From an uncultured Acidimicrobiaceae bacterium (GTDB taxonomy: Bacteria; Actinomycetota; Acidimicrobiia; Acidimicrobiales; SZUA-35): 64,000 bases of DNA. A program made the translations under genes and the position numbers. The number at the start of each line of letters is the position of its first letter. Position 1 is the first letter of the stretch. The DNA lies in NCBI GenBank assembly GCA_964551835.1, contig CAZKEM010000094.1, positions 12,868 through 76,867 on the forward strand, in the 5' to 3' direction. The notes below the pieces were generated by a model that ran no database searches, was not told the origin of the DNA, and was given only the letters and a program-made list of their open reading frames with translations. Below, one piece after another: positions 3,290 to 28,282 of the stretch.

Positions 3290-4420
3290 GTGACTAAGCC
3301 GGCGATCGTCTTTGTAACGACCATCTTCGAGCCTGTTCGTAATGGCCCAGCTATCTATGTGCAGTACCTGTACGACCACTTTGCCGACTCTCCAGACTTC
3401 GACTTTCACGTCGTCACTTGTGGAGCGGTAAAAGCAAGGCCTAACTTGCATCGTGTCGAGCTCGGGCGAAATTCGTTGGAGACCTACCGGCGGCTGCAGC
3501 GCTCTGCCCTTGACCTGGCCGAGAAGCTTGGACCAGGCACGATTGTTCACGGCAATGTCGCACATACGATGTGGATGTTCAGGAAGTACTCGGGGCCGCT
3601 CGTCGTGCAGGTAAATGACTACGACAACGCTACGGCTCTGAGCAGATGGTTCTGGCATCTCAGGCAACGGCAGTTAAGACGTTTGTTGGTGATGGGCTGG
3701 CGGAAACGAAATGAACGCCGTGTTCTAACTGCTGCTGACGCGGTGATATATAACTCGAAACATACGGCGAGAGAGGTTATGAATCGGTACGGCTTGAAGG
3801 GGGACAAGCATCAAGTTATTTACAAGGCGGTAGATACCTCCCACTTTGCTCGACCTAAAGACAAGAAGTCCCCGGCCTACACGTCACCTCGTCTGGTGTT
3901 TGTTGGCAGCAACTGGCGAATCAAGGGCTTTGATTCTTTGGTACGTGCTCTTGCGATCTTAAAGAAGACGTTCCCAAATGTTGTCCTCGATGCTGTTGGG
4001 CTTGAGATGATCGATCTTTCGGATCAGTTAAAGCAAGAAATTGAAGAAATAGGCGTGTCTGACAATATTCAATTTTCTGGGGTCGTGGAGCGAGAGCAAT
4101 TGCCGCACCACTTTTGGAACGCTGATGTATCACTTCTTCCGAGCGTCAGTGAGGCACTGGGTGTTTCTGTTCTTGAGTCTTTAGCCGCTGGTACACCGGC
4201 CGTGGCTAGTCGAGTTGGTGGAATCCCAGAGATTATCGATGGAAGCGGATGCGGCGTCTTGGTCGAACCCAATTCGCCGAAGGCGTTGGCTGAAGGCATA
4301 TCTGGTGTGTTGAACGGTGACTTTAGAAGGGTCCGACATGATGGTCCCAACCGAGCAAAGGTATTCAGCTTGGACCGAATGGTATCTCAAGTGGCTGATG
4401 TCTATTCGAACTTGGGCTAG
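3290..4420 (+). CDS. glycosyltransferase family 4 (GT-B)
   Basis: 376-aa ORF with the C-terminal motif 'SVSEALGVSVLESLAAGTPAVASRVGGIPEIID' (E-x7-E type). Confidence 0.8.
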   Translation: MTKPAIVFVTTIFEPVRNGPAIYVQYLYDHFADSPDFDFHVVTCGAVKARPNLHRVELGRNSLETYRRLQRSALDLAEKLGPGTIVHGNVAHTMWMFRKYSGPLVVQVNDYDNATALSRWFWHLRQRQLRRLLVMGWRKRNERRVLTAADAVIYNSKHTAREVMNRYGLKGDKHQVIYKAVDTSHFARPKDKKSPAYTSPRLVFVGSNWRIKGFDSLVRALAILKKTFPNVVLDAVGLEMIDLSDQLKQEIEEIGVSDNIQFSGVVEREQLPHHFWNADVSLLPSVSEALGVSVLESLAAGTPAVASRVGGIPEIIDGSGCGVLVEPNSPKALAEGISGVLNGDFRRVRHDGPNRAKVFSLDRMVSQVADVYSNLG

Positions 4421-4487
4421 TCAGGCTATGGCGAACTCATTTTATCGAAGGCCCACACCGGGACAGGTCCAATAGCGGAGAGCAGCC

Positions 4488-5591
4488 CTAAGCTCGTATC
4501 TTGCTTAAAGGGCCACTTGAGAAGTCATCACCTTGCTCGCTTCCAATTGTCGTAGCCAGTCGTTCCGAAAGCGAGTCCACGGTCCACAGTTGGCCGATTC
4601 GTTTAGAGGCTTCGCTCATTGAATGCCTGAGTTCACTATCTTCGACAAGAGCTGCGAGGTAACGTCGCAGCTCTCCTTCATCGTCGAAGATGTAGCCGTT
4701 AGATTTGTTCTCCACTAGATTGTCTGCTCCTGCTCGTACGTGGCGGCTAACAACACATGGAAGACCTGCGATTACGGCGTGGTTGAGCGTTACGCCCCAC
4801 CCGTCGTAGTGCGACGGCATTGCGAAGATGTCTGCAGCAGCGTACTCGCTCGCCAACCGATCAGGACTACAGTTTCCTGGAAGGGTGAGTGAAACTCCGG
4901 CCGTCTTTGCGATAGATTCGAGCTCGTTACGTAGCGGTCCCGAACCACATATTCGCACCTCAACCTTCGTGCGTAGCTCTTCGTTGCTGCACGCCCGTAT
5001 GAGCGCCGCATGGTTCTTCCGACCGATTAGCTGGCCAACGGAAAGGATCCGCGCTCGGTCGCCGTCTGGCTTCGTCCCGTTGTCGATCTCTAAGTCCAAG
5101 GTTTTTTCCGCAAACCCGAACTTATGAATAGATGGCTTGGTGATTCCGGCTGTTCTGAAATCGTCGGCAGCTCCGTCGCCTATTGCGAGGAGTGTTACGG
5201 CTGATGAATTGTAGAATTTTGCAAGCAGCTTGAGCTGATGGCTCGGGTTGGACCGGAAGCCCTCGGATGCAAGCCAGATATGGCGCTTCGCTAGGCGTGC
5301 CATACGGTGACACAGGAGCATACGAATTCTTGGTGTTGCCATGCCAAGCTGGACGACAATTTCCGCCCGGCGGAGCTGGCTTGCCAGATGAAGCCATGCT
5401 TTAGCTGTTCGGTCGAGGCGGTGGACTCCCAACCCTTGCTGCCAACCGAGTTCTGTGCGCTGGGGCGGAAGTGAATCGAAGGCGTAAACGTCGCAAGTCG
5501 CATTCAACTTCTCGCACGAGCTGTGGATGACGTCAAGCAGGTGCGGGTTTGGGTATGGGCAGATTACAAGGACTTTGCTTTTTGTAGGCAC
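4488..5591 (-). CDS. glycosyltransferase family 4-like (GT-B)
   Basis: 367-aa ORF with the donor-binding region 'PSHYDGWGVTLNHAVIAGLPCVVSRHVRAGADNLV'. Convergent with 3290..4420. Confidence 0.7.
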   Translation of the reverse strand: MPTKSKVLVICPYPNPHLLDVIHSSCEKLNATCDVYAFDSLPPQRTELGWQQGLGVHRLDRTAKAWLHLASQLRRAEIVVQLGMATPRIRMLLCHRMARLAKRHIWLASEGFRSNPSHQLKLLAKFYNSSAVTLLAIGDGAADDFRTAGITKPSIHKFGFAEKTLDLEIDNGTKPDGDRARILSVGQLIGRKNHAALIRACSNEELRTKVEVRICGSGPLRNELESIAKTAGVSLTLPGNCSPDRLASEYAAADIFAMPSHYDGWGVTLNHAVIAGLPCVVSRHVRAGADNLVENKSNGYIFDDEGELRRYLAALVEDSELRHSMSEASKRIGQLWTVDSLSERLATTIGSEQGDDFSSGPLSKIRA

Positions 5592-5598
5592 GTCCAGC

Positions 5599-6135
5599 TC
5601 AGCGCTCTAGGTAGTGAGAGTGTGTTTCGCCCGCTTCTAGGTGGCTTAGGACTTGAGCGGGGACGCCAGCGATAACCGACCCATCGGGGAATGACTTCGT
5701 GACGACGGACCCGGCGCCTACGACGCAGTTGTCGCCGAGTTCGATGTCGCCAACTAAGACTGACCCCGCTCCGACAGCTACGTTGTTGCCGAGCCTAGGT
5801 ACGCCGGGTGATCCTGACTTGCGTCCCAACGTGACGTTCTGGGAAATAAGACAGCGGTCGCCTATGACGCTTTTGGAGTGAATTACGACGCCTAAACCCC
5901 AGTAGCCGAGAGTGAATTCCTTTCCGATCGTTGCGGTGCTCGGCAGGGCACATGAGAAGGCCAGCCGATTTATGATACTGATGATCTTAGGTAGGACGGG
6001 AACGCGAGAGCTATGAAGGGCGTGTCCCAAACGGTATAGCAAGACCGGAGGGGAGATAGACGGCCGGTTTGCCTTTCGTCTATCAGGGTTGTCCGAGAGG
6101 TCTATGTCAGGCGAACTGGCGGCGTTTGTTGTCAT
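5599..6135 (-). CDS. hexapeptide-repeat (left-handed beta-helix) O-acetyltransferase, serine-acetyltransferase-like
   Basis: 178-aa ORF with tandem hexapeptide repeats 'IGDRCLISQNVTLG...LGNNVAVGAGSVLVGDIELGDNCVVGAGSVVTKSF'. Confidence 0.75.
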   Translation of the reverse strand: MTTNAASSPDIDLSDNPDRRKANRPSISPPVLLYRLGHALHSSRVPVLPKIISIINRLAFSCALPSTATIGKEFTLGYWGLGVVIHSKSVIGDRCLISQNVTLGRKSGSPGVPRLGNNVAVGAGSVLVGDIELGDNCVVGAGSVVTKSFPDGSVIAGVPAQVLSHLEAGETHSHYLER

Positions 6136-6714
6136 CTTCTCCTCACAATTCCTAGCTCAACGTTGAACTGGTCTAGTAATAATCGGCTGTCTTTTACCTG
6201 TTCCGGTAAGACATGAACTTAGGCCCTAGGCGCAGGGACATGATCAATATCAGGTAGTGATTAAGTCGAACGTCTTTGTTCCCACTAGGCCTGATGCTTT
6301 CTCTGCAACAGCGACGTCGATACGATTATTGGCCACTATCGACATCTCCGAGTTGTCAGATTAGCAAACATCGAGCGCCTAAACTTCGAACCAAGAATAT
6401 TCGGCAAACGGGCCGTAGTGGTCGAAGCGTTCCTTCCGGAACTAGGGATGTAGAAGGCTCGACCCGACCCTCTTGTCCACCACCCGGGCACCGAGGTATC
6501 GGAGCTCTTTCGACAGTGCAGAGCTTCTTGAGCCATGAACGAAAAAGAACTGGTCTTTGGATGGTCGACTTCATACCCGAAGAGCCCCATGTGGTCCCTG
6601 GAAACATGTTGGGAGTGCGGTGTGTCGACCGACGTCAAGAACCGTGGGGACCGAAGATCACAGCATCTTGGTCGTTTGGTGTGCTGTGCCGGATCCTTGA
6701 AGCTCGGCAGTTCA

Positions 6715-11620: not shown

Positions 11621-11790
11621 CTCGAGCGGAGCGAGAGAAAGAGATCCTATTCCAACATATTGGAGTACCTTACGCCCAGAAATGTCCTTGGCGTCGCCCG
11701 AGAACTGTGAACGTACTAGTTTGCCAAGCAGTCGATTGTTGATAGCTCGACGAGCCTGAGATTGTTGGTTGCGGACTGTCTGTAAGAGGT

Positions 11791-12585
11791 TCAGGGTTGG
11801 GGCTCCAAACCTGCGACGCTTCGATGGCTACGTTGAACCACAGAACCATTGATCTGAGCGACTTCTGGATGTTCGTCCAGAAAGTCCAGAACCGGCGTCA
11901 TCTTTAGCTCATTTGACGAGGGGAACTCCTCATAGACCCTCGAGATAACTTCGTAGTCTTCAGCCGAGTCCAAGGTAAGCCGGTAGTGAGATCCGCGTAA
12001 AGCCGCTCCCAGCATCGGAACCCTCTCGATGTGGAACTGCTCCGGGTTGTCGTAAAGATAAGGCAACGCGTGCTCACGTTGGAACGGCTCTGTTGCCTGT
12101 TCCGAAGCTATAGCCAGAGCCGAAAATTTTGCTATCTCAACCTCGAAACCGAGAGGGCACATCCGGTCGCTTGGGTGGTTAGCCGAGATGTTCGCTGTGT
12201 AGTCCGCCGAGGTTCTAAGATGATGGGCCAATACTAGATCGACGGTTTCGGGGTCAACGACTGGCTTGTCTCCGGGAATGCGTATCACATGGTCGGCTTC
12301 TTTATATTTGGCAGCACCGACGTGCCTGTCTAACACGTCGTCCAGGGAACCTCGAAACAAGTCGATGTCAACCGATTGACAGTAGATCTCTATCGGGTCA
12401 TCAGAAGCAGCCGTTGATGTGGCGACGACGATGTCGTCAAGCCTCGGAGCCATTTGGAGTCTCGAAACGATTTGGCTCAGAACCGGCTTTCCTCCGAGGG
12501 GGAATAGTACTTTCCCTGGAAGTCGTGATGAACCCATTCGGGCCTGAACGACAGCTACGCAACGTTGGCCTACCACGCTGTCCAA
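11791..12585 (-). CDS. cytidylyltransferase, SpsF/NeuA-like (candidate CMP-nonulosonate synthetase)
   Basis: 264-aa ORF with the N-terminal nucleotidyltransferase motif 'VAVVQARMGSSRLPGKVL'. Confidence 0.7.
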   Translation of the reverse strand: MDSVVGQRCVAVVQARMGSSRLPGKVLFPLGGKPVLSQIVSRLQMAPRLDDIVVATSTAASDDPIEIYCQSVDIDLFRGSLDDVLDRHVGAAKYKEADHVIRIPGDKPVVDPETVDLVLAHHLRTSADYTANISANHPSDRMCPLGFEVEIAKFSALAIASEQATEPFQREHALPYLYDNPEQFHIERVPMLGAALRGSHYRLTLDSAEDYEVISRVYEEFPSSNELKMTPVLDFLDEHPEVAQINGSVVQRSHRSVAGLEPQP

Positions 12586-13355
12586 CCCCCGTCGACCACA
12601 AGGTTCGCACCGGTCATATATGCTGATGCTTCGGATGCAAGAAAGACCATCGCTCCCTGGTAGTCGTCCGGTTCAGCCATTCGGGCGAGGGGAGTTCGGC
12701 TCTCATACTCTTGGCGAAACTCGGGGCTTTGCCCCTCGTTCTTTACTCCGCCAGGCGAAAGTGTGTTGACACGCACACCCTTCGTCGCCCAATATGTAGC
12801 GAGGTACCGTGAGAAGTTTAGAACTGCTGCTTTGGTAGTTGCGTACCCGATTGGGCTATTGATGCCGGAGTCTCCGTAGATTTGGTGTTGAGCGCTGACC
12901 ATTCCGTACGTCGACGATGTATTGATGATCGAGCCGCTTCCTCGTTCGGCCAGCACTGTCCCGAAGACCTGACAGGAAAGGAAAAGGCCTGTGAGATTGA
13001 CATCGATAGTCGACTGCCAAATTTCGAGGGGATATTTTTCGAATGGAGCGAAAAAGTCGTGTCCGGGACGAAGATGGCGTGGGTCGCCTTTGTAATGTGC
13101 GTGGTTTGCCAGCACGTCGACTTGGCCATAAGTGTCAAGGACCTTGGCTAACGCATCGCTGACGCTCTCTGGGTTGAGAATGTCGGTAGGAACCGTAAGG
13201 AAGCGTTCGTCCACTCCATCTGTGACAAGGTCGACGACGGCCACTCGTGCACCCGCTTCGTCGTAGGCTTGAGCGGTTTGACGGCCTATCTGCCCTGCGC
13301 CGCCTACGACCACCGCGATTTTGCCTTCGAGCGAAAACCTGTCCATGATAGTCAT
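12570..13355 (-). CDS. short-chain dehydrogenase/reductase (classical SDR)
   Basis: 261-aa ORF with the glycine motif 'VVVGGAGQIGRQTA' and catalytic 'YATTKAA' (YxxxK). Confidence 0.8.
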   Translation of the reverse strand: MTIMDRFSLEGKIAVVVGGAGQIGRQTAQAYDEAGARVAVVDLVTDGVDERFLTVPTDILNPESVSDALAKVLDTYGQVDVLANHAHYKGDPRHLRPGHDFFAPFEKYPLEIWQSTIDVNLTGLFLSCQVFGTVLAERGSGSIINTSSTYGMVSAQHQIYGDSGINSPIGYATTKAAVLNFSRYLATYWATKGVRVNTLSPGGVKNEGQSPEFRQEYESRTPLARMAEPDDYQGAMVFLASEASAYMTGANLVVDGGWTAW

Positions 13356-14368
13356 CAGATGCTCCTGGGAAGTTTGATCATCGAATTAGTTTCGGCCGAC
13401 TCCAGAAGGGCTAGCGCTACGCGGGTCGTGCGTTCGCCTTCGGTAAGTGTTACGAGCGGGTCTTTTCTGTCTCTAACGGCGTCAGAGAAATCAGCCAACA
13501 TGCCGATGTAGTCATCTTCGAATGGATATGGCGAAGGGAAATCGCCATCCTCGGTGACGGCGCAATCGGCTGTGATCTCTAGGTTCGGTTCCTCGAAGTC
13601 CCATACGACACTTCCAAGTTCGCCGATGGCTCGTATTCGTCGTCGGTTCGGTTTCTGAAAAAAGTCGAGGTGGAGGAGTGTGGTGCATCCGCCTTCGTGG
13701 CTTAGAAGGCCGTCCATACATCCTTCGGCATCTAGTTGCAGGCTTTCTAACTTGCGTCGCTGGCCGAGCACTTCTTCGATTTTTCCGAACAGAAATTCTG
13801 CGGTGTTCAGCTCATGTGAACAAGTCAGGGTGACCCCTCCGCCCATATCTCGCCGCGCGGCGTATCCTGTGCGATAGTCTTCCCACGGATGCCAATCGGG
13901 TAAGTGTGTGCCCCATTCGACGTGGGCTGTTGTGACCTGGCCAATGGCACCGCTGTCTAACACTTCCTTCATTCGTAGAAGTCGTTTGTCGAAACGCATT
14001 TGGTGGGCCACCCCGACGATGGCGTTTTGTTCCCTGGCCAAAGAGTGCAGTTTTGATAGTCCAGCGACACTGTGGGAGAGAGGCTTCTCGATGAGAACAT
14101 CGAAACCCTGTTCCAGTGCCCAACGTGTTGTTTCGAGATGTAAGAACGTTGGATTCGCAACGATTACGGCATCTGGATTCAATGCGGCAACGTCAGCCCG
14201 GTCGAAAACGACCGGTATCTGCTTCTCCAGGCGGGGTCGGCCCTCAACAGCTTCTCCTGAGCGTAGAAAAAAGGCGTCAGAACCAAGGGACAATGCGTTG
14301 GCGGCGTGTCGCCGGCCAATAGATCCGTAGCCAACAACACAGAACCGCAAAGGTTCGGCTGAGGTCAT
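13355..14368 (-). CDS. Gfo/Idh/MocA family oxidoreductase
   Basis: 337-aa ORF with the Rossmann motif 'FCVVGYGSIGRRHA' and 'LIEKPL'. It shares a 1-nt TGATG overlap with the downstream SDR. Confidence 0.8.
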   Translation of the reverse strand: MTSAEPLRFCVVGYGSIGRRHAANALSLGSDAFFLRSGEAVEGRPRLEKQIPVVFDRADVAALNPDAVIVANPTFLHLETTRWALEQGFDVLIEKPLSHSVAGLSKLHSLAREQNAIVGVAHQMRFDKRLLRMKEVLDSGAIGQVTTAHVEWGTHLPDWHPWEDYRTGYAARRDMGGGVTLTCSHELNTAEFLFGKIEEVLGQRRKLESLQLDAEGCMDGLLSHEGGCTTLLHLDFFQKPNRRRIRAIGELGSVVWDFEEPNLEITADCAVTEDGDFPSPYPFEDDYIGMLADFSDAVRDRKDPLVTLTEGERTTRVALALLESAETNSMIKLPRSI

Positions 14369-15423
14369 TCTGTGAAGTCGTCCAAGGTTAAGAGCGTGTC
14401 AGCCTGGACAGAACGGACCGTGGTCTTACCTAGGAGGTCGTAGTACATGGCTGGAGGTAGGCCGGTGCCCGGTCGCTTGAGTGTAAGATGCTGCTCGGAG
14501 AGTATGGTTCCAGGTTCAATGTCTATCGCCGACACGACGCTCCGACGAGCGTTAGACCGCGTCAGCTGTTCACAATCGAGCGTCTTCTTAACGCCGTCAC
14601 CGAGAGATTTCTCAAGTGTCCTAACGTCTTCGACCATGGATTGGAGCTCTTCTTCGTTGAGGGATAGCCAATGGTCTGCACTGTCTGGGAGGGTCTTGTC
14701 GAATGTGTAGTGCTTCTCGATTACTCTTACTCCATATAGAACTGATGCTGCTGGAACGATTGTCCCAAGGGTGTGGTCGCTCAAGCCCAAGAGTTCGTTG
14801 GGGAATTCCTTGGCTATGTGATGAAGGGCCGTAAGGTTGGCATCGGCAGGATCGGTTGGGTAACAGAGTGTGCAGTGCATGATGCAGATGTCGTCGGTCC
14901 CTGCAGCGGTGATTTCGTCCACGGCTGTTCGGATCTCATCGATGGTCGCTGCTCCGGTAGATAGCAGCATTGGGAGGCCCTTGCTCGCCACGTGGCGAAG
15001 AAAGGGAATATTTGTGATGTCGCACGATGCCATCTTGAAGCCTTTCGCTCCGACGCTGACCAGCATGTCGGCTGCGTCGTTATCGAACGGAGTCGATAGG
15101 AACTCGACCTCGTATTTCTCACATAGAGAATAGAGGTCTCGATACTGGTCTTCTTCGAACGAGTCGAGGAGCGAGTAGGAGTCGAATTGGGAGCCTTCTG
15201 AATCGTGTTCGCCATCCCAGTCCCAGAAACGTGGGGCTGATTTAGTAGTGAGATTCTCCGCCTTGTAGGTCTGAAACTTGACTATGTCTGCACCAGCTCG
15301 GGCGGCTGTCTTTATTAGTTCTTCAGCGTAGTCCATTCGCCCGAGATGGTTAACGCCAGCTTCGGCGATAACCACCGTCTTATCGCTGGTGAAATTTACG
15401 TTACCTATCGTGAAGTGATACAT
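14365..15423 (-). CDS. NeuB/LegI/PseI-family nonulosonic acid (sialic-acid-like) synthase
   Basis: 352-aa ORF with 'VIAEAGVNHLG' and 'IVKFQTYK'. The C-terminal SAF-type domain contains 'IEPGTILSEQHLTLKRPGTGLPP'. Confidence 0.85.
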   Translation of the reverse strand: MYHFTIGNVNFTSDKTVVIAEAGVNHLGRMDYAEELIKTAARAGADIVKFQTYKAENLTTKSAPRFWDWDGEHDSEGSQFDSYSLLDSFEEDQYRDLYSLCEKYEVEFLSTPFDNDAADMLVSVGAKGFKMASCDITNIPFLRHVASKGLPMLLSTGAATIDEIRTAVDEITAAGTDDICIMHCTLCYPTDPADANLTALHHIAKEFPNELLGLSDHTLGTIVPAASVLYGVRVIEKHYTFDKTLPDSADHWLSLNEEELQSMVEDVRTLEKSLGDGVKKTLDCEQLTRSNARRSVVSAIDIEPGTILSEQHLTLKRPGTGLPPAMYYDLLGKTTVRSVQADTLLTLDDFTE

Positions 15424-16108
15424 ACTTCTTCTCCATTTCTATGATGGCGTCATTTCGGTCGTCCTGAAGTGTCAGGTTTAGGCCGTGTATGTGATACCTA
15501 TATAGAGCAATTGGAAGGTGGAAACCCCTACACCCATTCTGGATAAGCCGGCCAATTAAGTCGTAATCCTCGCACGTCCGGAGTGTCTCGTCGTAACCTC
15601 CAACCTCTTTCAGCGCAGAGGTTCGGAAGAGAACGCCGGCTCCATGTTCGAACAGTTTCTGTTGAGTTGAGAGAGGGACGCGGGACTGTTTGAAACCTAC
15701 TTCGTCGACCCGGTAGTGGTCACAGTACACGAAGTCGATGGCAGGGTTCTCGTCGAGAATTTGTGATGTATAGGTGATGGCAAGTTTGTTCAAGAAGTCG
15801 TCGGCGTCGACCCGCATAATGTACTTGCCTTTGGAAGCATTTATCCCGGCGTTGGATGCACCTCCAACGCCCCGGTTGGTCTCGAGTAGCACTGAAACTA
15901 CGTCTTGTTCATAGGTTTTGATGATCTGCGTCGAATTGTCGGTCGAAGCGTCATCGACGATTATCACCTCAAAGCTCCGCCTAAACACGATTTGATCCAG
16001 GCATGATCGAACCGCCCGGTCAAGAAATTTGCCGCGGTTGAAGTTGGTGATGATCATTGAAACATCAAGGGTTGTCACGAGATGAAATCTCCGAGATTCG
16101 GGTAACAC
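15401..16108 (-). CDS. glycosyltransferase family 2
   Basis: 235-aa ORF with 'VSMIITNFNRGKFLDRAVRSCLDQ', 'IIVDDASTDNS' and the DxD motif 'RVDADDF'. The true start may lie about 15 codons further in. Confidence 0.8.
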   Translation of the reverse strand: MLPESRRFHLVTTLDVSMIITNFNRGKFLDRAVRSCLDQIVFRRSFEVIIVDDASTDNSTQIIKTYEQDVVSVLLETNRGVGGASNAGINASKGKYIMRVDADDFLNKLAITYTSQILDENPAIDFVYCDHYRVDEVGFKQSRVPLSTQQKLFEHGAGVLFRTSALKEVGGYDETLRTCEDYDLIGRLIQNGCRGFHLPIALYRYHIHGLNLTLQDDRNDAIIEMEKKYVSLHDR

Positions 16109-16425
16109 TTCATAGTTAAAACACTGGGTCCATTAGCTCTTGTCGGGCGACCTTTGGAGCAGGAGTTCTTCCACTACTAGTACCTCTTGATACGCGAGGC
16201 CTTTGCTACGAGACCGCACCTTAGCACAGCGTAAAAACAAAAGTGGGTGAAGCCGCGACATTATTTAGGTCGACCATTATTGATACGAATAGCTTGTCTA
16301 ACAATCGACAATTAAGTTGATGTATGGACAGCTAGGGTAGGTTTGATTCGGTCTAATGAAGTTCTTTCGGTAGCCCAAATATGTTGAAGTGTCCGTCCAG
16401 TGGGTTGTTGGCGAAAGTTCGGTTT

Positions 16426-18279
16426 CTATCCTTGTCCGGTGATCGTCCATCGTCGCGCGTTTGCCGTGAAGTGGGTGACCTGGTCAACCTTGGGAGAAGG
16501 GTGCGGCGAGATCGTTTCAGACCGGTAGGAACAAGTACTCAACGTGTCACCAGCTTCGGTTTGTGAAGATGTTGCCCACTCCCAGAATGCAACATTTTTA
16601 GACAGGTCCTCAATCTCCCACCCGTTAGCGCTTGGAGTTACGGATCGTTCGAACTCCAACTCCTTGCCGTGGGCAGATACAGAGAAGTGATCGACTGTCG
16701 AAATAGATACCTTTGGCCAGTCTCCCCAGAGAAATCGGCCTAGTCGGGTCATTTGTTGTTCGCCGGGGATGTGGGGCATGTTGTGATGCTGGGTCTCTGA
16801 CAAATCAGGCTCGCCAGGTTTTGGCTTGTAGCTCCACGTACCTGGGTCGAACACGACCTGCTCGCCGTCGACCCACAGCTCGACATGGCCAAAATCGCAT
16901 TGAGGCGGACGAAACAGTTGATGCTCACCACCACGAATTAGCGCCCGATGTTTGCCATTCACAATGACCGAAAGTCCGGCATCGGGAAACACCTTCGTCT
17001 GCACCCCTTCCGGCTCAGGTTCGTTCGGGAGATACCGCTGAGGCCGACCCCAAAACCAGCAGACGGCTTCGATCGCCGGTCCGCCCCAATCGTAGGTCGA
17101 CCCCTCAATCAACTGAGCGGCCATCAGTAATGTCGGACGGACATCCAAATGGCGGGTCGACGTCAACGGCAAAATATGTGCCCCGTCGTTGTTGCCCCAA
17201 TTACCTGCCGCTCCGTCGCTCTTCTGCGTAATAGCTAAAAGGAACCGGTATGTGCGATCAAGCGCCGACTCCAACTCGTCCGGGACGGCTTTGCCGACGG
17301 ACCGAAACAGCCACATCGCCCAAATGAAGTTCTCCATAAACACTCGGTGGTAGTTCAACGAGTACTGCGATGTGCCGCCATCAGCAAACACGAGCTTCTC
17401 ACACGCCTGAACCAGTAACCGTTCACCCAACCTGCGGTATCGGGCGGCCCGCGCCAAGTCGGGGAACAGGAGCCCGACCGTTATCAGCCCAACGGCTTCG
17501 GAAACGATGTGGTTGTTGTCTTGGCTGCGGGCGTACCGCCAATGCGCCGAGATACGTTGCGCCGTCACGTCGGCAAACTTTGCCAACAGCGTCCTACGTC
17601 CGGGTGTCAGGTAGTCGGGGCCAAACGCTTGGACGGCGAACACGGCAGCCATGAGTCGCAGCGCCGACTCTTGGCCACATGTCCAGTTCACACCATCGTT
17701 CGGCTGATTAGCGTCGCACCAGTCTTCGAACAGCTGCCAGAACACGTCGGGAGCTGCCGTTTCGGGGTCGAAAGCGTGCAGTCTCGCCAGCTTGAATGCC
17801 CATCCAAAGCGAGACGGCTCCCAAATAAGTTTGAGATCGGCTTCGGGTAACTCCCGTACCTCCGACCAATGCTGCCCAATAGGGTACGAGGCCGGGGTGA
17901 TGGGCTCATGATGCCAAGAATCGATATCGCACATCGTTCCGAACACATCGAATTGGCGGTTCTTCAACTGATCAAGTGTGCGGCGAAGATCAGCCTCTGC
18001 CTCTGGCACTTCGTCTCGGAGAAACTGCCCTGCGTCGCTGTTATATAAGGTCAACCACCGAAACGCCTGTGACGGTCCGACATCGAGGTTTTGCCAAGTG
18101 CTCATGGGGGAACGGCGTTTATAGACACCCAACTTGTGTTCGGTCGTCAAAAACAGTCGAGTCGCAACCCAACGCCAACCAAGGGTTTCCAAAACCTTGA
18201 AGCCAAGGCGGACCTTGCCTAAACGCCCTCTGAACTGCGGCGCTAGAACAGAAGGTTCTTCGTTTGGTGCTGATGACAT
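16426..18279 (-). CDS. heparinase II/III-like (alginate-lyase-fold) protein
   Basis: The ORF runs 16426..18330; I moved the start to ATG 18279 ('MSSAPNEEP'). C-terminal 'CDFGHVELWVDGEQVVFDPGTWSY' fits the Hepar_II_III C-domain pattern. Confidence 0.65.
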   Translation of the reverse strand: MSSAPNEEPSVLAPQFRGRLGKVRLGFKVLETLGWRWVATRLFLTTEHKLGVYKRRSPMSTWQNLDVGPSQAFRWLTLYNSDAGQFLRDEVPEAEADLRRTLDQLKNRQFDVFGTMCDIDSWHHEPITPASYPIGQHWSEVRELPEADLKLIWEPSRFGWAFKLARLHAFDPETAAPDVFWQLFEDWCDANQPNDGVNWTCGQESALRLMAAVFAVQAFGPDYLTPGRRTLLAKFADVTAQRISAHWRYARSQDNNHIVSEAVGLITVGLLFPDLARAARYRRLGERLLVQACEKLVFADGGTSQYSLNYHRVFMENFIWAMWLFRSVGKAVPDELESALDRTYRFLLAITQKSDGAAGNWGNNDGAHILPLTSTRHLDVRPTLLMAAQLIEGSTYDWGGPAIEAVCWFWGRPQRYLPNEPEPEGVQTKVFPDAGLSVIVNGKHRALIRGGEHQLFRPPQCDFGHVELWVDGEQVVFDPGTWSYKPKPGEPDLSETQHHNMPHIPGEQQMTRLGRFLWGDWPKVSISTVDHFSVSAHGKELEFERSVTPSANGWEIEDLSKNVAFWEWATSSQTEAGDTLSTCSYRSETISPHPSPKVDQVTHFTANARRWTITGQG

Positions 18280-18310
18280 GTCGGCGCGTCTGGACAGTGC
18301 GGCGGGTGTG
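18168..18310. repeat. left copy of an imperfect ~143-bp direct repeat (5' end plus upstream leader of the heparinase-like gene)
   Basis: The core 18168..18219 matches 19199..19250 at 47 of 52 positions. The motif 'gcggcgggtgt' recurs at the same offset (18299 vs 19329). Confidence 0.8.
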
Positions 18311-18426
18311 TCCGCTTCGCACGTTAGCACAACCGATTTAGCGGTTCAGTTGAATTCCAACAAACTTCGACCTCACCACAGCTGTCGCGGCTGCGGCCTA
18401 ACGTTGAGCTGCAACTCCAAAGTATG

Positions 18427-18804
18427 CTAAACGGTCTGAAGTTGAAAGCCGTCGTACTCCGAAAACGCTCGATCTCTTGAGAACAGGGTAAGTTTGTGAT
18501 TCTGCGCCTGGGCGATGAGCATTCGGTCAAAAGGGTCTCGGTGACGGTTTGGCAACGTACCCGCCGTCCATGAGTCTTCCCAAGAAATTGGTAACTGTTC
18601 GAAACTGTCTTCGCTCAACAGGTCGAACATCTCAGTAGGGAAGCTGAGCTTGCCGATGCGTTCTTTGATCCGCATCTCCCAAGTTGAGACAGCACTTACT
18701 AAAACCAGGTTCTCGGGGTCGGCTATTTGAGCGATAGTTGTGTCGTCGAGTTCGATGCCCGCATACCACCAAATGAGGGCATGGGTGTCAAGAAGGATGC
18801 GCAT
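18427..18804 (-). CDS. vapC: type II toxin, PIN-domain ribonuclease VapC
   Basis: 'MRILLDTHALIWW', 'VSAVSTWEMRIK' and 'HRDPFDRMLIAQA' are the typical PIN acidic motif positions. The gene overlaps the upstream antitoxin gene. Confidence 0.85.
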   Translation of the reverse strand: MRILLDTHALIWWYAGIELDDTTIAQIADPENLVLVSAVSTWEMRIKERIGKLSFPTEMFDLLSEDSFEQLPISWEDSWTAGTLPNRHRDPFDRMLIAQAQNHKLTLFSRDRAFSEYDGFQLQTV

Positions 18805-19051
18805 CGTCACCGGTGGTCTCGGCTAGCCCTTCGAATGAACCCGCAACCCAGTCGGGGGTTTGATCGAAATCGTCAGCCATCGTGATAAGCCCGGCAAGGC
18901 GTCCAGGTTCACGAGGTTTTTGTTCTTCAAGATATGGCACGAGGCGCGCTAGAGGTTTGCCCGACTTTCCCAAAATGATGTTCTCACCGTTCGCGGCCCG
19001 GTCGATCAGTTTAGAAAGGTGTGTCTTAGCTTCGTAGACGTTGATAACCAT
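18788..19051 (-). CDS. type II antitoxin, Phd/YefM family
   Basis: 'MVINVYEAKTHLSKLIDRAANGENIILGKSGKPLARLVP' is a typical Phd/YefM N-terminus. The start is placed at ATG 19051; the ORF extends to 19072. Confidence 0.8.
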   Translation of the reverse strand: MVINVYEAKTHLSKLIDRAANGENIILGKSGKPLARLVPYLEEQKPREPGRLAGLITMADDFDQTPDWVAGSFEGLAETTGDDAHPS

Positions 19052-19198
19052 ATACTGACTGTACTTGGTCAAGTCTAGTCAAGTCAAACCTGCAAGATCT
19101 GGTTGCGAGTTGAGCTACAGCTCGTCGAGAAGGGTTTCCAGTTCGTCGACCAACGCCAGGCGCGACCGGTTTCGCGCATCCACCGTTTACCTGACTCG

Positions 19199-19340
19199 CC
19201 CAACGCCAACCAAGAGTCTCCACAACGTTGAAGCTAAGGCGGACCTTGCCGAGTCGACCTGGAATCGCGTCGGCCTTCGCGACTGTTTTTTTGTCTGTCT
19301 CGGTGGGCATGTACGTGCGGTGAATCGGGCGGCGGGTGTA
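19199..19340. repeat. right copy of the imperfect direct repeat flanking the toxin-antitoxin pair
   Basis: See the left copy (18168..18310). The two copies lie 1031 bp apart with the TA genes between them. Confidence 0.8.
19200..19310 (-). pseudogene. orphan 5' stub (ATG plus 37 codons) homologous to the start of the heparinase II/III-like gene
   Basis: '..GRLGKVRLSFNVVETLGWRW' aligns with 'GRLGKVRLGFKVLETLGWRW' of the intact gene. The motif starts at codon 18 in both copies. After codon 37 the frame runs into the antitoxin region. Confidence 0.6.
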
Positions 19341-19360
19341 TCTAGAACGCTAGCTACTTA

Positions 19361-20536
19361 CTACAGTCCGTCGAGAAGCGATTCTAACTTGGCGGCCAGC
19401 CTCGCACGAGACCGATTCTCTTGCATCCATTGTCTGCCGGCTTCGCCCTGCTTAGCCCGTACTGACCCGTGCAGAGCTTGAATTCTTCGCACGCCGTCGG
19501 CAATCTCAGTAGGCCCTACGGCTTCACCCGATTCGGCTTCGGTGACCATCGATGCAACCTCGCCCGGCGTGTTGGTGACGACTGGTAAACCAGCAGCCAT
19601 ATAGTCGTACAACTTGTTAGGGCTTACCCCGTGATGGAACAAGGGAACGTCGGCCAAACAATGTAGCCCGATGTCGGCGGCGGCGAACAGTTCGGGGATC
19701 TTCTCCTTACTTATCGGTTCTCGAAATTCGACGTTAGTCAGGCCTCGAGCCGACGCGTCAGCTACTAAGTCTCGTTTGGCTACCCCATCTCCAACGAAGA
19801 CAAACAAAGCATCGGTGTCAGCAAGCGATTCAGCTGCGTCGAGCGCCAGATCTAAACCGTTAGCGGGTCCGTGGGCACCGGCGTAGACAATGACAGTTCC
19901 GTCGAAGTTGAACTTTCTGCGCAGCTCCGACCTAGGTTCACCGACAGCGAAATCTTCGGGGTCGGCGCCGTTTGGGACGAAACGTACTTTCATGCCGTCG
20001 ATACCCTCAGCAACAATAGGGTTGGCCGAACCTTTAGCTAGGACAACGATCGTGTCTGCGTTGAGGTAAAGAAGACGTTCTAACCGCTTCAACGAACGAT
20101 AGACCGGCGATGATTCTTCCATCGTCCCAGCATCGATCAGTATCTGAGGCCACAAATCTCGTACCTCCAAAACGAACTTGGCCCGATGGGCTCGAGCAAT
20201 CAGAAGCCCGGCAAGCGCTGCGCCCAGATGTGGTGAAGACCCATACACGACGTCAACGGGTTTGCGAAAGGTTCCACGCAGAAGCGCCCCAGCAGAGTAG
20301 CTTGCCCAGTTGACTATTCGAGTAAAACCGTTGCCTTTATATGGCGTAACGGGAACGGTCTTTAATATCCCGGACGATTTGACCGGCGCCTGGTCGAGCA
20401 TCGACCGGTTGCCGACGATTATGGTTGGCTGCCAATTTTTGAGTTTGGCGAAAAGCTCGACATGGCGAGTTCCCCCGGGTGAGCTTCGGGGGAGCGCAAA
20501 TTGGTTGAGAACCAGCACGCGTTTCTTTCTACTCAT
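19361..20536 (-). CDS. glycosyltransferase family 4, WbuB-like
   Basis: 391-aa ORF with N-terminal 'PGGTRHVELFAKL' and a C-terminal GT-B region 'HGVSPNKLYDYMAAGLPVVTNTPGEVASMV'. Confidence 0.8.
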   Translation of the reverse strand: MSRKKRVLVLNQFALPRSSPGGTRHVELFAKLKNWQPTIIVGNRSMLDQAPVKSSGILKTVPVTPYKGNGFTRIVNWASYSAGALLRGTFRKPVDVVYGSSPHLGAALAGLLIARAHRAKFVLEVRDLWPQILIDAGTMEESSPVYRSLKRLERLLYLNADTIVVLAKGSANPIVAEGIDGMKVRFVPNGADPEDFAVGEPRSELRRKFNFDGTVIVYAGAHGPANGLDLALDAAESLADTDALFVFVGDGVAKRDLVADASARGLTNVEFREPISKEKIPELFAAADIGLHCLADVPLFHHGVSPNKLYDYMAAGLPVVTNTPGEVASMVTEAESGEAVGPTEIADGVRRIQALHGSVRAKQGEAGRQWMQENRSRARLAAKLESLLDGL

Positions 20537-21669: not shown

Positions 21670-21812
21670 AGTTTCGAACCTCGGTTTCGTCGTCTACGAA
21701 ACGGGACCTTAGCATACGCAGTTCGGAATAGAGGACGTAGAGATATGCTTTGTTTGTCAAATGCAGTATTCGAACAAGATTGGTATTTAGGGTCTATGTA
21801 TAGATAGTGGAT

Positions 21813-27832: not shown

Positions 27833-28282
27833 GTGAAAACCTACGTACCAAAACCTGCAGAAATCGAGCGTCAATGGTTCATCGTTGACGCTGATGGCTT
27901 GACCCTCGGCCGAATGGCCACAGAAGTCGCCAGTGTCTTGCGTGGAAAGCATAAGCCGACCTTCGCTCAGCACACCGATACCGGTGACCACGTCATCGTA
28001 ATCAACGCTGAGAAAGTCGTGTTGACCGCTAACAAAGCGGAAAAGAAAATGGTTCACGACCACTCTGGCTACCCAGGCGGTCTACGATCCCGCACGTATG
28101 CTGCGGAGATGGCGAGCCAGCCAGCCGAAGCGGTACGCCGCTCAATCGGTGGCATGTTGCCAAAAACCAAACTCGGAAACCAGCAGCTAACTAAACTAAA
28201 AGTCTATGCAGGAGCCGAGCACCCACACGGGGCCCAAAATCCAACACCGCTCGAAATCGCCGGCGCACGTCGGGAAAGCTGA
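27833..28282 (+). CDS. rplM: 50S ribosomal protein L13
   Basis: GTG 27833 gives '[59 protein letters not shown]', the canonical L13 N-terminus. Confidence 0.95.

Follow-up and report, generated by a model that had tools for sequence, protein, structure and literature searches.

How does a toxin-antitoxin (TA) pair come to lie inside a glycan operon, bracketed by two copies of the start of one and the same gene? This arrangement is found in the window, a stretch of 64,000 nucleotides from an uncultured Acidimicrobiaceae bacterium, where the pair stands between a GT4 glycosyltransferase gene and a heparinase II/III-like gene (hereafter hep). A sequence-only reading had attributed it to recombination with a diverged allele that carried the TA pair. 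All genes of the region are on the minus strand, and all data used here are metagenome assemblies.

The intact hep gene (16426..18279, minus strand) encodes 617 aa, with a start that is called identically in public assemblies. Its Hepar_II_III_N and Hepar_II_III_C domains were found with Pfam E values of 1.4e-14 and 4e-9, and each passes its gathering score; the NCBIfam HepC equivalogs scored far under their cut-offs, so the product is not a heparin-sulfate lyase equivalog. The earlier reading had described a duplication of about 143 bp covering the leader and the first 37 codons of this gene, and the pairwise alignment it called for confirms the duplication far above chance. Leader and codons 1-37 are present twice in a local alignment of 146 columns (z=29), which scores 50 against 9.4 +/- 1.4 in dinucleotide shuffles (0 of 1000 reach 50) and which begins at the leader motif ACACCCGCCGC, takes in the ATG and ends at codon 37, the W of ..ETLGWRW. 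A repeat search gave 85% over 62 nt for 18168-18229 versus 19199-19260; these sequences agree with the identity of 47/52 reported for the core and with a peptide motif that begins at codon 18 in both copies. The leader motif does occur in both copies (18299-18312 and 19329-19342), as had been stated; its spacing is 1030 and that of the core 1031, which implies one 1-nt indel between motif and core.

Codons 1-37 of the intact gene (18169-18279) form copy 2 of this 5' repeat. Copy 1 is a stub (19200..19310, minus strand) consisting of the ATG and 37 codons, MPTETDKKTVAKADAIPGRLGKVRLSFNVVETLGWRW, the remnant of a second heparinase II/III-like gene. It retains the invariant G34 and W37 of the family and the nearly invariant V29, T32 and L33, and over codons 18-37 it differs from the intact gene with pS=0.34 and pN=0.09. 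No hep homologue among 120 gave the stub a better match than the intact gene of the window itself (score 98 versus 92 and 91). The ATG at 19310 lies, as described before, 50 nt beyond the GT4 stop at 19361, and the 50 nt in between (19311..19360, minus strand) are leader/spacer copy 1, which contains ACACCCGCCGC and is homologous to 18280-18334; the similarity score of the two leader copies was reached by 15 of 2000 shuffles. Leader copy 2 (18280-18334) belongs to the 147-nt spacer between VapC and hep (18280..18426, minus strand), of which only these last ~50 nt are homologous to the resident spacer. No homology of the 147-nt spacer to relatives was found.

The hep 5' end had been taken as the only duplicated part, which proved wrong. 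Directly after the stub lies a GT4' 3' fragment (19115..19198, minus strand), the last 28 codons and TAG of a second GT4 gene, so that the whole GT4/hep junction is present twice. The resident GT4 gene (19361..20536, minus strand) is an ORF of 391 aa with Pfam Glyco_trans_4_4/Glycos_transf_1 matches, is 62-82% identical in amino acids to the GT4 genes upstream of hep in relatives, and provides copy 1 of the tail repeat with its last 28 codons and stop (19361-19447). The GT4' fragment carries one frameshift, caused by the loss of 1 nt from a run of A (about 19170-19172), and reads GESGKRWMRE, the 1-nt deletion, then NRSRLALVDELETLLDEL and a stop; the resident tail reads GEAGRQWMQENRSRARLAAKLESLLDGL and a stop. 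The repeat search gave 74% over 38 nt for the two tails, and their similarity was reached by 0 of 1000 shuffles (z=13.5). At the protein level the GT4' tail shares 16/27 residues with the resident tail versus 18/27 with the GT4 of another locus, L086, and it differs from the resident tail with pS=0.69-0.73 and pN=0.22-0.23.

The layout of the region is GT4 - spacer - hep(1-37) :: GT4'(tail) - Phd/VapC - spacer - hep. The illegitimate junction in its middle (19199..19201) is a 3-nt microhomology, GGG, common to hep (..CGTTGGG) and GT4 (..CAGGGC), at which both the sequence and the alignments place the end of hep homology and the beginning of GT4-tail homology. One illegitimate join at this GGG microhomology fused codon 37 of hep to codon ~363 of the GT4' of another module. 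For annotation, this means that the 94-aa ORF at 19026-19310 is a chimeric remnant and not a gene. We consider it highly improbable that the join is a metagenome assembly chimera of two co-occurring strains. The gene order does recur in at least one related lineage of the sample (locus L172), but the ENA scaffold, an independent Logan assembly of SRR7595258 and the window have an identical structure, base for base across the junction. The Logan assembly is 100% identical over window positions 11670-19516, the Logan contig is reported from 2 samples, and a mis-join in the k-mer graph is unlikely because the junction shares just 3 nt.

Divergence between the copies was then used to characterize the two remnants. 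Values of pS are 0.55 for hep codons 1-37 and 0.69-0.73 for the GT4 tail, and 0.70 for the whole GT4 gene of the window versus L172; the copies are thus as far apart as orthologues of different lineages within the sample. For fragment versus intact copy, pN/pS is 0.21-0.34, compared with 0.15-0.29 for functional orthologues, and the remnants contain one frameshift and zero stop codons in 195 nt. Since pS is high and pN/pS is that of working orthologues, the stub and the GT4' tail come from functional genes that diverged long ago and were truncated only recently. Copies that are 65-85% identical, with pS of 0.55-0.7, do not represent a target-site or other fresh duplication, and the contention of the earlier reading that no fresh target-site duplication had taken place is borne out. 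The same values bear on a scheme in which a junction of ~250 nt was duplicated locally in tandem, the TA pair inserted into the second copy and the copies diverged in situ. Formally, a layout with the unit of tail, spacer and 5' end present twice is that of a tandem duplication. One copy of each pair would, however, be a neutral pseudogene, yet pN/pS (0.2-0.3) is as in functional orthologues and conserved residues are kept. Such pS with a single frameshift and no stop is implausible in neutral DNA, and the GT4' tail is no nearer to the resident tail than to L172 or L086. We therefore give this scheme hardly any credence.

The TA cassette itself is unremarkable. The toxin gene (18427..18804, minus strand) encodes an apparently intact VapC of 125 aa with a PIN domain (Pfam PF01850, E=1.5e-17, profile positions 1-118/120); across 17 aligned sequences, its acidic residues D6, E43, D93 and D111 do not vary. 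Immediately upstream and co-directional is the gene for a Phd/YefM-type antitoxin of 87 aa (18788..19051, minus strand; PF02604, PhdYeFM_antitox, E=4e-8; TIGR01552 phd_fam above the cut-off). Just upstream of the antitoxin ATG is a sigma-70-like promoter match, TTGACT-18-TACAGT (19058..19087, minus strand), which is a consensus match only and the single one in 18000-19600 versus 0.5 expected. Like type II VapBC systems with a Phd/YefM antitoxin, the small antitoxin gene overlaps the downstream PIN gene (by 17 nt), and the conserved PIN acidic residues and the promoter-like site upstream, both predicted from the sequence, are as in such systems. Unlike in known type II VapBC, the nearest of more than 7900 VapC homologues other than the protein itself is only 57% identical. 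The pair gave neither a PADLOC match nor a sequence-level match to solved structures, and Rfam and tRNA searches returned nothing relevant. It looks intact and ordinary, and is presumably a self-contained addiction-type module, probably autoregulated.

Several kinds of mobile unit were considered for the cassette. The features of a transposon or IS target-site duplication are absent, the repeats being 111+ nt and 84 nt long and only 65-85% identical, without a transposase ORF or terminal inverted repeats. Nor is the mark of an integron gene cassette seen, as the 141 nt after VapC show no attC-like fold and are no more structured than shuffles (z=-0.18). More generally, the TA cassette could be a mobile element, the flanking repeat being the target-site duplication or att site produced when it inserted. 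The cassette does lie between the copies of a 15-nt imperfect direct repeat (13/15), the left one at 18403..18417 and the right one at 19109-19123, over the GT4' stop codon; the spacing is 706, and a 13/15 match may be chance. The large repeats are not only diverged but asymmetric, with the hep 5' end on both sides and the GT4 tail on one. No transposase or integrase was found between or beside the repeats in the ORF list or with Pfam, nor were terminal inverted repeats, and no TA cassette with the same 15-nt ends was found in unrelated contexts. A mobile cassette is thus a very unlikely source of the duplication. Two diverged versions of the GT4-hep module once existed and, because the GT4' tail and the intact hep gene flank the TA pair in canonical gene order, one of them had Phd/VapC between GT4' and hep already before the join. 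The pair was thus in place before the stub arose, and insertion of the TA pair did not produce the duplication as a by-product.

Comparison with relatives placed the pair against the norm of the family. GT4 directly adjoins hep in 18 relatives, mostly with an ATGA overlap and no spacer, which supports the view that the TA pair is an insertion. The empty-site comparison proposed from the sequence was made with L172, from the same metagenome sample and the closest GT4 relative (82% aa), which has GT4, a spacer of 56/77 nt and the hep 5' end without a TA pair. The leader motif common to both window copies is absent from L172. What follows the GT4' stop (CTTGCAGGTTT) marginally resembles the spacer of L172 (21 of 2000 shuffles reach the score), an observation we do not rely on. 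Exact-sequence look-ups of GT4, hep and VapC returned only copies of the same contig; a scan of genome contigs placed Acidimicrobiales MAGs nearest, at 65-67%, and one of metagenome contigs gave nothing nearer than 54%. No donor or parental allele was found in the databases, and the window's own genes match the stub and the GT4' tail best.

These relatives are also central to the main alternative, the collapse of tandem modules GT4a-hepA-GT4b-TA-hepB, in which one microhomology-mediated deletion or progressive decay by deletion removed hepA from codon 38 to the end and GT4b codons 1-362. This would give exactly the observed junction, and deletional decay leaves remnants hugging functional neighbours. 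The leaders share the motif that L172 lacks, which fits paralogues of the same genome as well as closely related alleles, and composition is without sign of foreign DNA. None of the 18 relatives, however, has a TA pair or a second module, and across ~170 loci neither a doubled module nor a doubled N-terminal motif was seen. As the copies are as diverged as separate lineages (pS about 0.6-0.7), a tandem duplication would have to be old, yet both remnants are nearly undamaged. A single random deletion with both breakpoints within 111 nt and 84 nt of the gene ends has, from gene lengths, P of about 0.004. We consider tandem collapse doubtful, though a serious contender, and the same holds for the alternative that had been offered from the sequence, decay of a second paralogue, given that no relative has two modules.

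The explanation of the scar that we favour, with moderate confidence, is that diverged alleles of the surface-glycan locus were exchanged illegitimately, in the manner of homology-facilitated illegitimate recombination (HFIR). HFIR joins DNA at microhomologies of 3-10 bp, as described in PMC6382021 (citing de Vries & Wackernagel 2002; Prudhomme 2002; Meier & Wackernagel 2003). As in HFIR, the join to a diverged homologous segment is at a microhomology of this size, near the homologous position, and results in a short duplication/insertion, and GGG at 19199-19201 is an illegitimate junction of this kind between diverged homologous DNA. Here only the product is seen; an anchor, RecA dependence, natural transformation and a foreign origin are putative. 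In terms of a foreign segment, divergence is at the inter-lineage level, with no donor, discordance or compositional signal, relatives being about equidistant. Pairwise identity matrices of 15 loci revealed no phylogenetic discordance between GT4 and hep, a comparison without power since the window is about equally distant from all relatives. Base composition showed no clear foreign block or boundary, hep being slightly richer in G+C. When the intergenic regions 16109-16425 and 21670-21812 were compared with the window and all loci by tblastx and blastn, no remnants of a right-hand junction came to light.

Under HFIR-like exchange, the alleles would come from related lineages, the event would be anchored in conserved flanking genes and the free end would be joined near the homologous position. 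The stub and the GT4' tail would now be non-functional remnants, and the TA pair would split genes that appear to be translationally coupled in relatives. With the pair between GT4 and hep, expression of hep presumably relies on read-through, either from the operon or from the TA promoter. The original proposal of recombination with a diverged, TA-bearing allele thus holds for the diverged homologous origin, which is best supported, and needs correction in that the TA pair was in the spacer of its module before the stub was made.

At O-antigen and capsule loci of E. coli, Klebsiella and S. pneumoniae, gene remnants are left at recombination junctions after replacement of serotype clusters. The glycan loci examined here similarly have a conserved 5' block (initiating transferase, acetyltransferase, aminotransferase, GT4) and a variable 3' block, with truncated ends of diverged alleles at the boundary. 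They differ in that the join is an illegitimate 3-nt microhomology and not a homologous crossover in a flanking gene, that the host is an uncultured Acidimicrobiales-like actinobacterium and that a TA pair lies inside the boundary. The scar is an ordinary, known kind of genome feature, and neither a new mechanism nor a new kind of system. Its value is as a base-resolved example, from an uncultured actinobacterial lineage, of how a surface-polysaccharide locus that already had a TA pair at the boundary was remodelled, and as one more case for work on exchange between glycan loci and on hitch-hiking TA pairs.

Two independent hep stubs were seen, one in the window and one in locus L174. It is conceivable, though we think it unlikely, that the initial ~30-40 codons of hep, next to GT4, are a recurrent breakpoint at which Acidimicrobiales exchange the variable half of surface-glycan clusters, and that TA addiction at this boundary may stabilise or help to fix a newly gained glycan cassette. 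L174 is a second scar of the same class, in which a microhomology links a 29-codon hep stub with the 3' end of a Hexapep gene. Its flanks are mosaic, with 87% and 99% identity to locus L173, as is also seen at O-antigen and capsule junctions.

Every gene in this part of the window lies on the minus strand, and the domain assignments were all confirmed with Pfam. In the direction of transcription, the GT4 glycosyltransferase gene (19361-20536) is followed by a 50-nt spacer (19311-19360) and a stub of a heparinase II/III-like gene, hep, comprising the ATG and 37 codons (19200-19310). Then come the last 28 codons and stop of a second GT4 gene, GT4' (19115-19198), 63 nt with a promoter-like site (19052-19114), the Phd/YefM antitoxin gene (18788-19051), the PIN/VapC toxin gene (18427-18804), a 147-nt spacer (18280-18426) and the intact hep (16426-18279). 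The region is part of a surface-glycan locus with genes for a PglD-like hexapeptide acetyltransferase, a Bac_transf initiating transferase, a DegT aminotransferase, GT4, hep, GT2, NeuB, CTP_transf_3 and further proteins. At ~317 nt, the stretch between hep and GT2 (16109-16425) is unusually long; its G+C is low (0.46-0.48), and no homology to it could be detected in relatives or elsewhere in the window.

The sequence-only reading had described the 5' end of hep as duplicated on either side of the toxin-antitoxin (TA) pair, and this repeat is real. Positions 18168-18229 and 19199-19260 share 85% identity across 62 nt, with 47 of 52 positions matching in the core. The local alignment spans 146 columns, beginning at the leader motif ACACCCGCCGC, crossing the ATG and ending at codon 37; its score of 50 is far above chance (dinucleotide shuffles 9.4 +/- 1.4, z=29, 0/1000 reaching 50). 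The extent of the duplication had been underestimated, however, since the GT4' tail was missed. This remnant matches the resident GT4 tail at 74% over 38 nt (z=13.5, 0/1000 shuffles), a significance independent of the hep repeat. It translates as GESGKRWMRE and, after a 1-nt deletion in an A run, NRSRLALVDELETLLDEL and stop; the resident tail reads GEAGRQWMQENRSRARLAAKLESLLDGL and stop. Homology to hep stops and homology to GT4 starts at a common point, the GGG at 19199-19201. The structure is GT4 tail, spacer and hep 5' end, then GT4' tail, TA, spacer and hep 5' end, and the unit duplicated is the entire GT4-to-hep junction. Here the sequence is the same to the base in the window, in the ENA scaffold and in an independent Logan assembly, so an assembly artefact is unlikely.

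The intact hep contains a terminator-like hairpin with a T run (18156-18173, minus strand), just past codon 37 and at exactly the position homologous to the stub breakpoint; the number of such hairpins in the region does not exceed that in shuffles (2 vs 1.8). A 94-aa ORF (19026-19310, minus strand) opens with the stub ATG and runs 23 nt into the antitoxin gene before it stops. It is a chimera of the stub and the out-of-frame GT4' tail and should be left out of gene annotation; if it were translated, ribosomes would cross the TA promoter region.

The duplication had also been tied to insertion of the TA pair, and this part of the interpretation has to be corrected. With the GT4' tail upstream of it and intact hep downstream, the pair stands within the canonical gene order and therefore already lay in the spacer of its GT4-hep module before stub and tail were joined; the duplication is no consequence of TA insertion. 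The toxin retains the PIN acidic residues (D6, E43, D93 and D111). The VapC family is very large (>7900 matches), and its closest non-self member, at 57% identity, is too remote for the origin of this VapC to be traced. The cassette is bracketed by an imperfect 15-nt direct repeat (13/15), with copies at 18403-18417 (GTTGAGCTGCAACTC) and at 19109-19123 (GTTGAGCTACAGCTC), the latter taking in the GT4' stop codon; the repeat may have been left when the cassette entered the spacer, or may be chance.

The stub and intact hep differ at pS=0.55 and pN=0.29 (0.34 and 0.09 over conserved codons 18-37), and the GT4' and resident tails at pS=0.69-0.73 and pN=0.22-0.23. These values match those of true orthologues, as seen for GT4 of the window and of L172, a contig from the same metagenome sample (whole gene pS 0.70, pN/pS 0.15; tail pN/pS 0.29). 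The GT4' tail is equally similar to the GT4 of other genomes, with 18/27 matches to that of relative L086 vs 16/27 to the resident gene. The stub keeps all the N-terminal motif residues conserved in the family, and 195 nt of fragments contain a single frameshift and zero stop codons. Orthologue-like divergence with so little damage therefore marks the fragments as recent leftovers of genes that had diverged while still working. A target-site duplication, which the sequence-only reading had likewise argued against, is thereby ruled out, and a local tandem duplication followed by drift in place is very unlikely.

The nearest genomes are Acidimicrobiales MAGs. In 18 distinct relatives (L003, L004/L006, L005, L007, L008, L010, L011, L034, L086, L087, L089, L092, L093, L166-L169 and L173) GT4 directly precedes hep, without TA or a second module, and most have a 4-nt ATGA overlap between the genes. 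Among ~170 loci, only that of the window carries the N-terminal motif in two copies. L172, a 4.5-kb contig bearing the closest GT4 relative (P0242, 82% aa), is an empty site: it has the upstream gene order of the window, a 56/77-nt spacer and the hep start, without TA, at 72% overall DNA identity. This lineage (L172:4200-4557) and the window each have a spacer between GT4 and hep, unlike more distant relatives with their ATGA overlap; the contig stops ~45-51 codons into hep.

In the window, diverged homologous DNA is joined at a 3-nt microhomology and the two breakpoints lie near the homologous position, both of which homology-facilitated illegitimate recombination produces. Illegitimate joins at 3-10 bp are documented in a passage of PMC6382021 citing de Vries and Wackernagel 2002. 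Such an event is also plausible in this setting, where the 5' block is conserved, the 3' block varies and related lineages occur together in the sample. On this junction anatomy and setting we favour allele exchange between lineages, which would have joined diverged modules at the GGG. The main rival, deletion between two tandem paralogous modules, would leave the same product. It draws support from the motif shared by both window leaders and lacking in L172, and from the failure to find phylogenetic discordance or base-composition signals at the window locus; it is opposed by the lack of two modules in any relative, and by copies that have diverged like separate lineages yet hardly decayed.

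A second stub occurs in L174 (1453-1560), a low-coverage long-read contig (3.8x) from another sample, where 29 codons of hep follow GT4 and run, through a microhomology join, into the final 7 codons of a hexapeptide-transferase gene plus a DUF218 segment. Its flanks are mosaic when compared with L173 from the same sample (4037-4825 and 5196-6446): that segment is 99.2% identical, GT4 with the stub only 87%. L174 is an independent scar of the same class, to be read with caution given its coverage. The two cases, one in a 3.8x assembly, hint that the boundary just inside hep is struck repeatedly and do not establish a hotspot.

The earlier interpretation is thus partly supported, its observation being confirmed and extended: the feature is a well-resolved, ordinary recombination scar adjoining an ordinary VapBC-type module, both of kinds already known. 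GT4 and hep are probably translationally coupled in relatives; in the window they are ~1.08 kb apart, and hep is presumably transcribed by operon read-through and/or from the TA promoter-like site (19087-19058). In L169 (4411-6267), a stromatolite-metagenome relative, the GT4 gene call spans 618 aa, with a hexapeptide acetyltransferase fused at the N-terminal end, and a DDE transposase fragment lies at the cluster end. Elsewhere in the window, 7 of the 12 SNPs relative to the ENA scaffold (L001) fall within 100 nt (28030-28129) in the ribosomal protein L13 gene region; recombination at strain level or a difference between assembly consensus sequences may account for this cluster.
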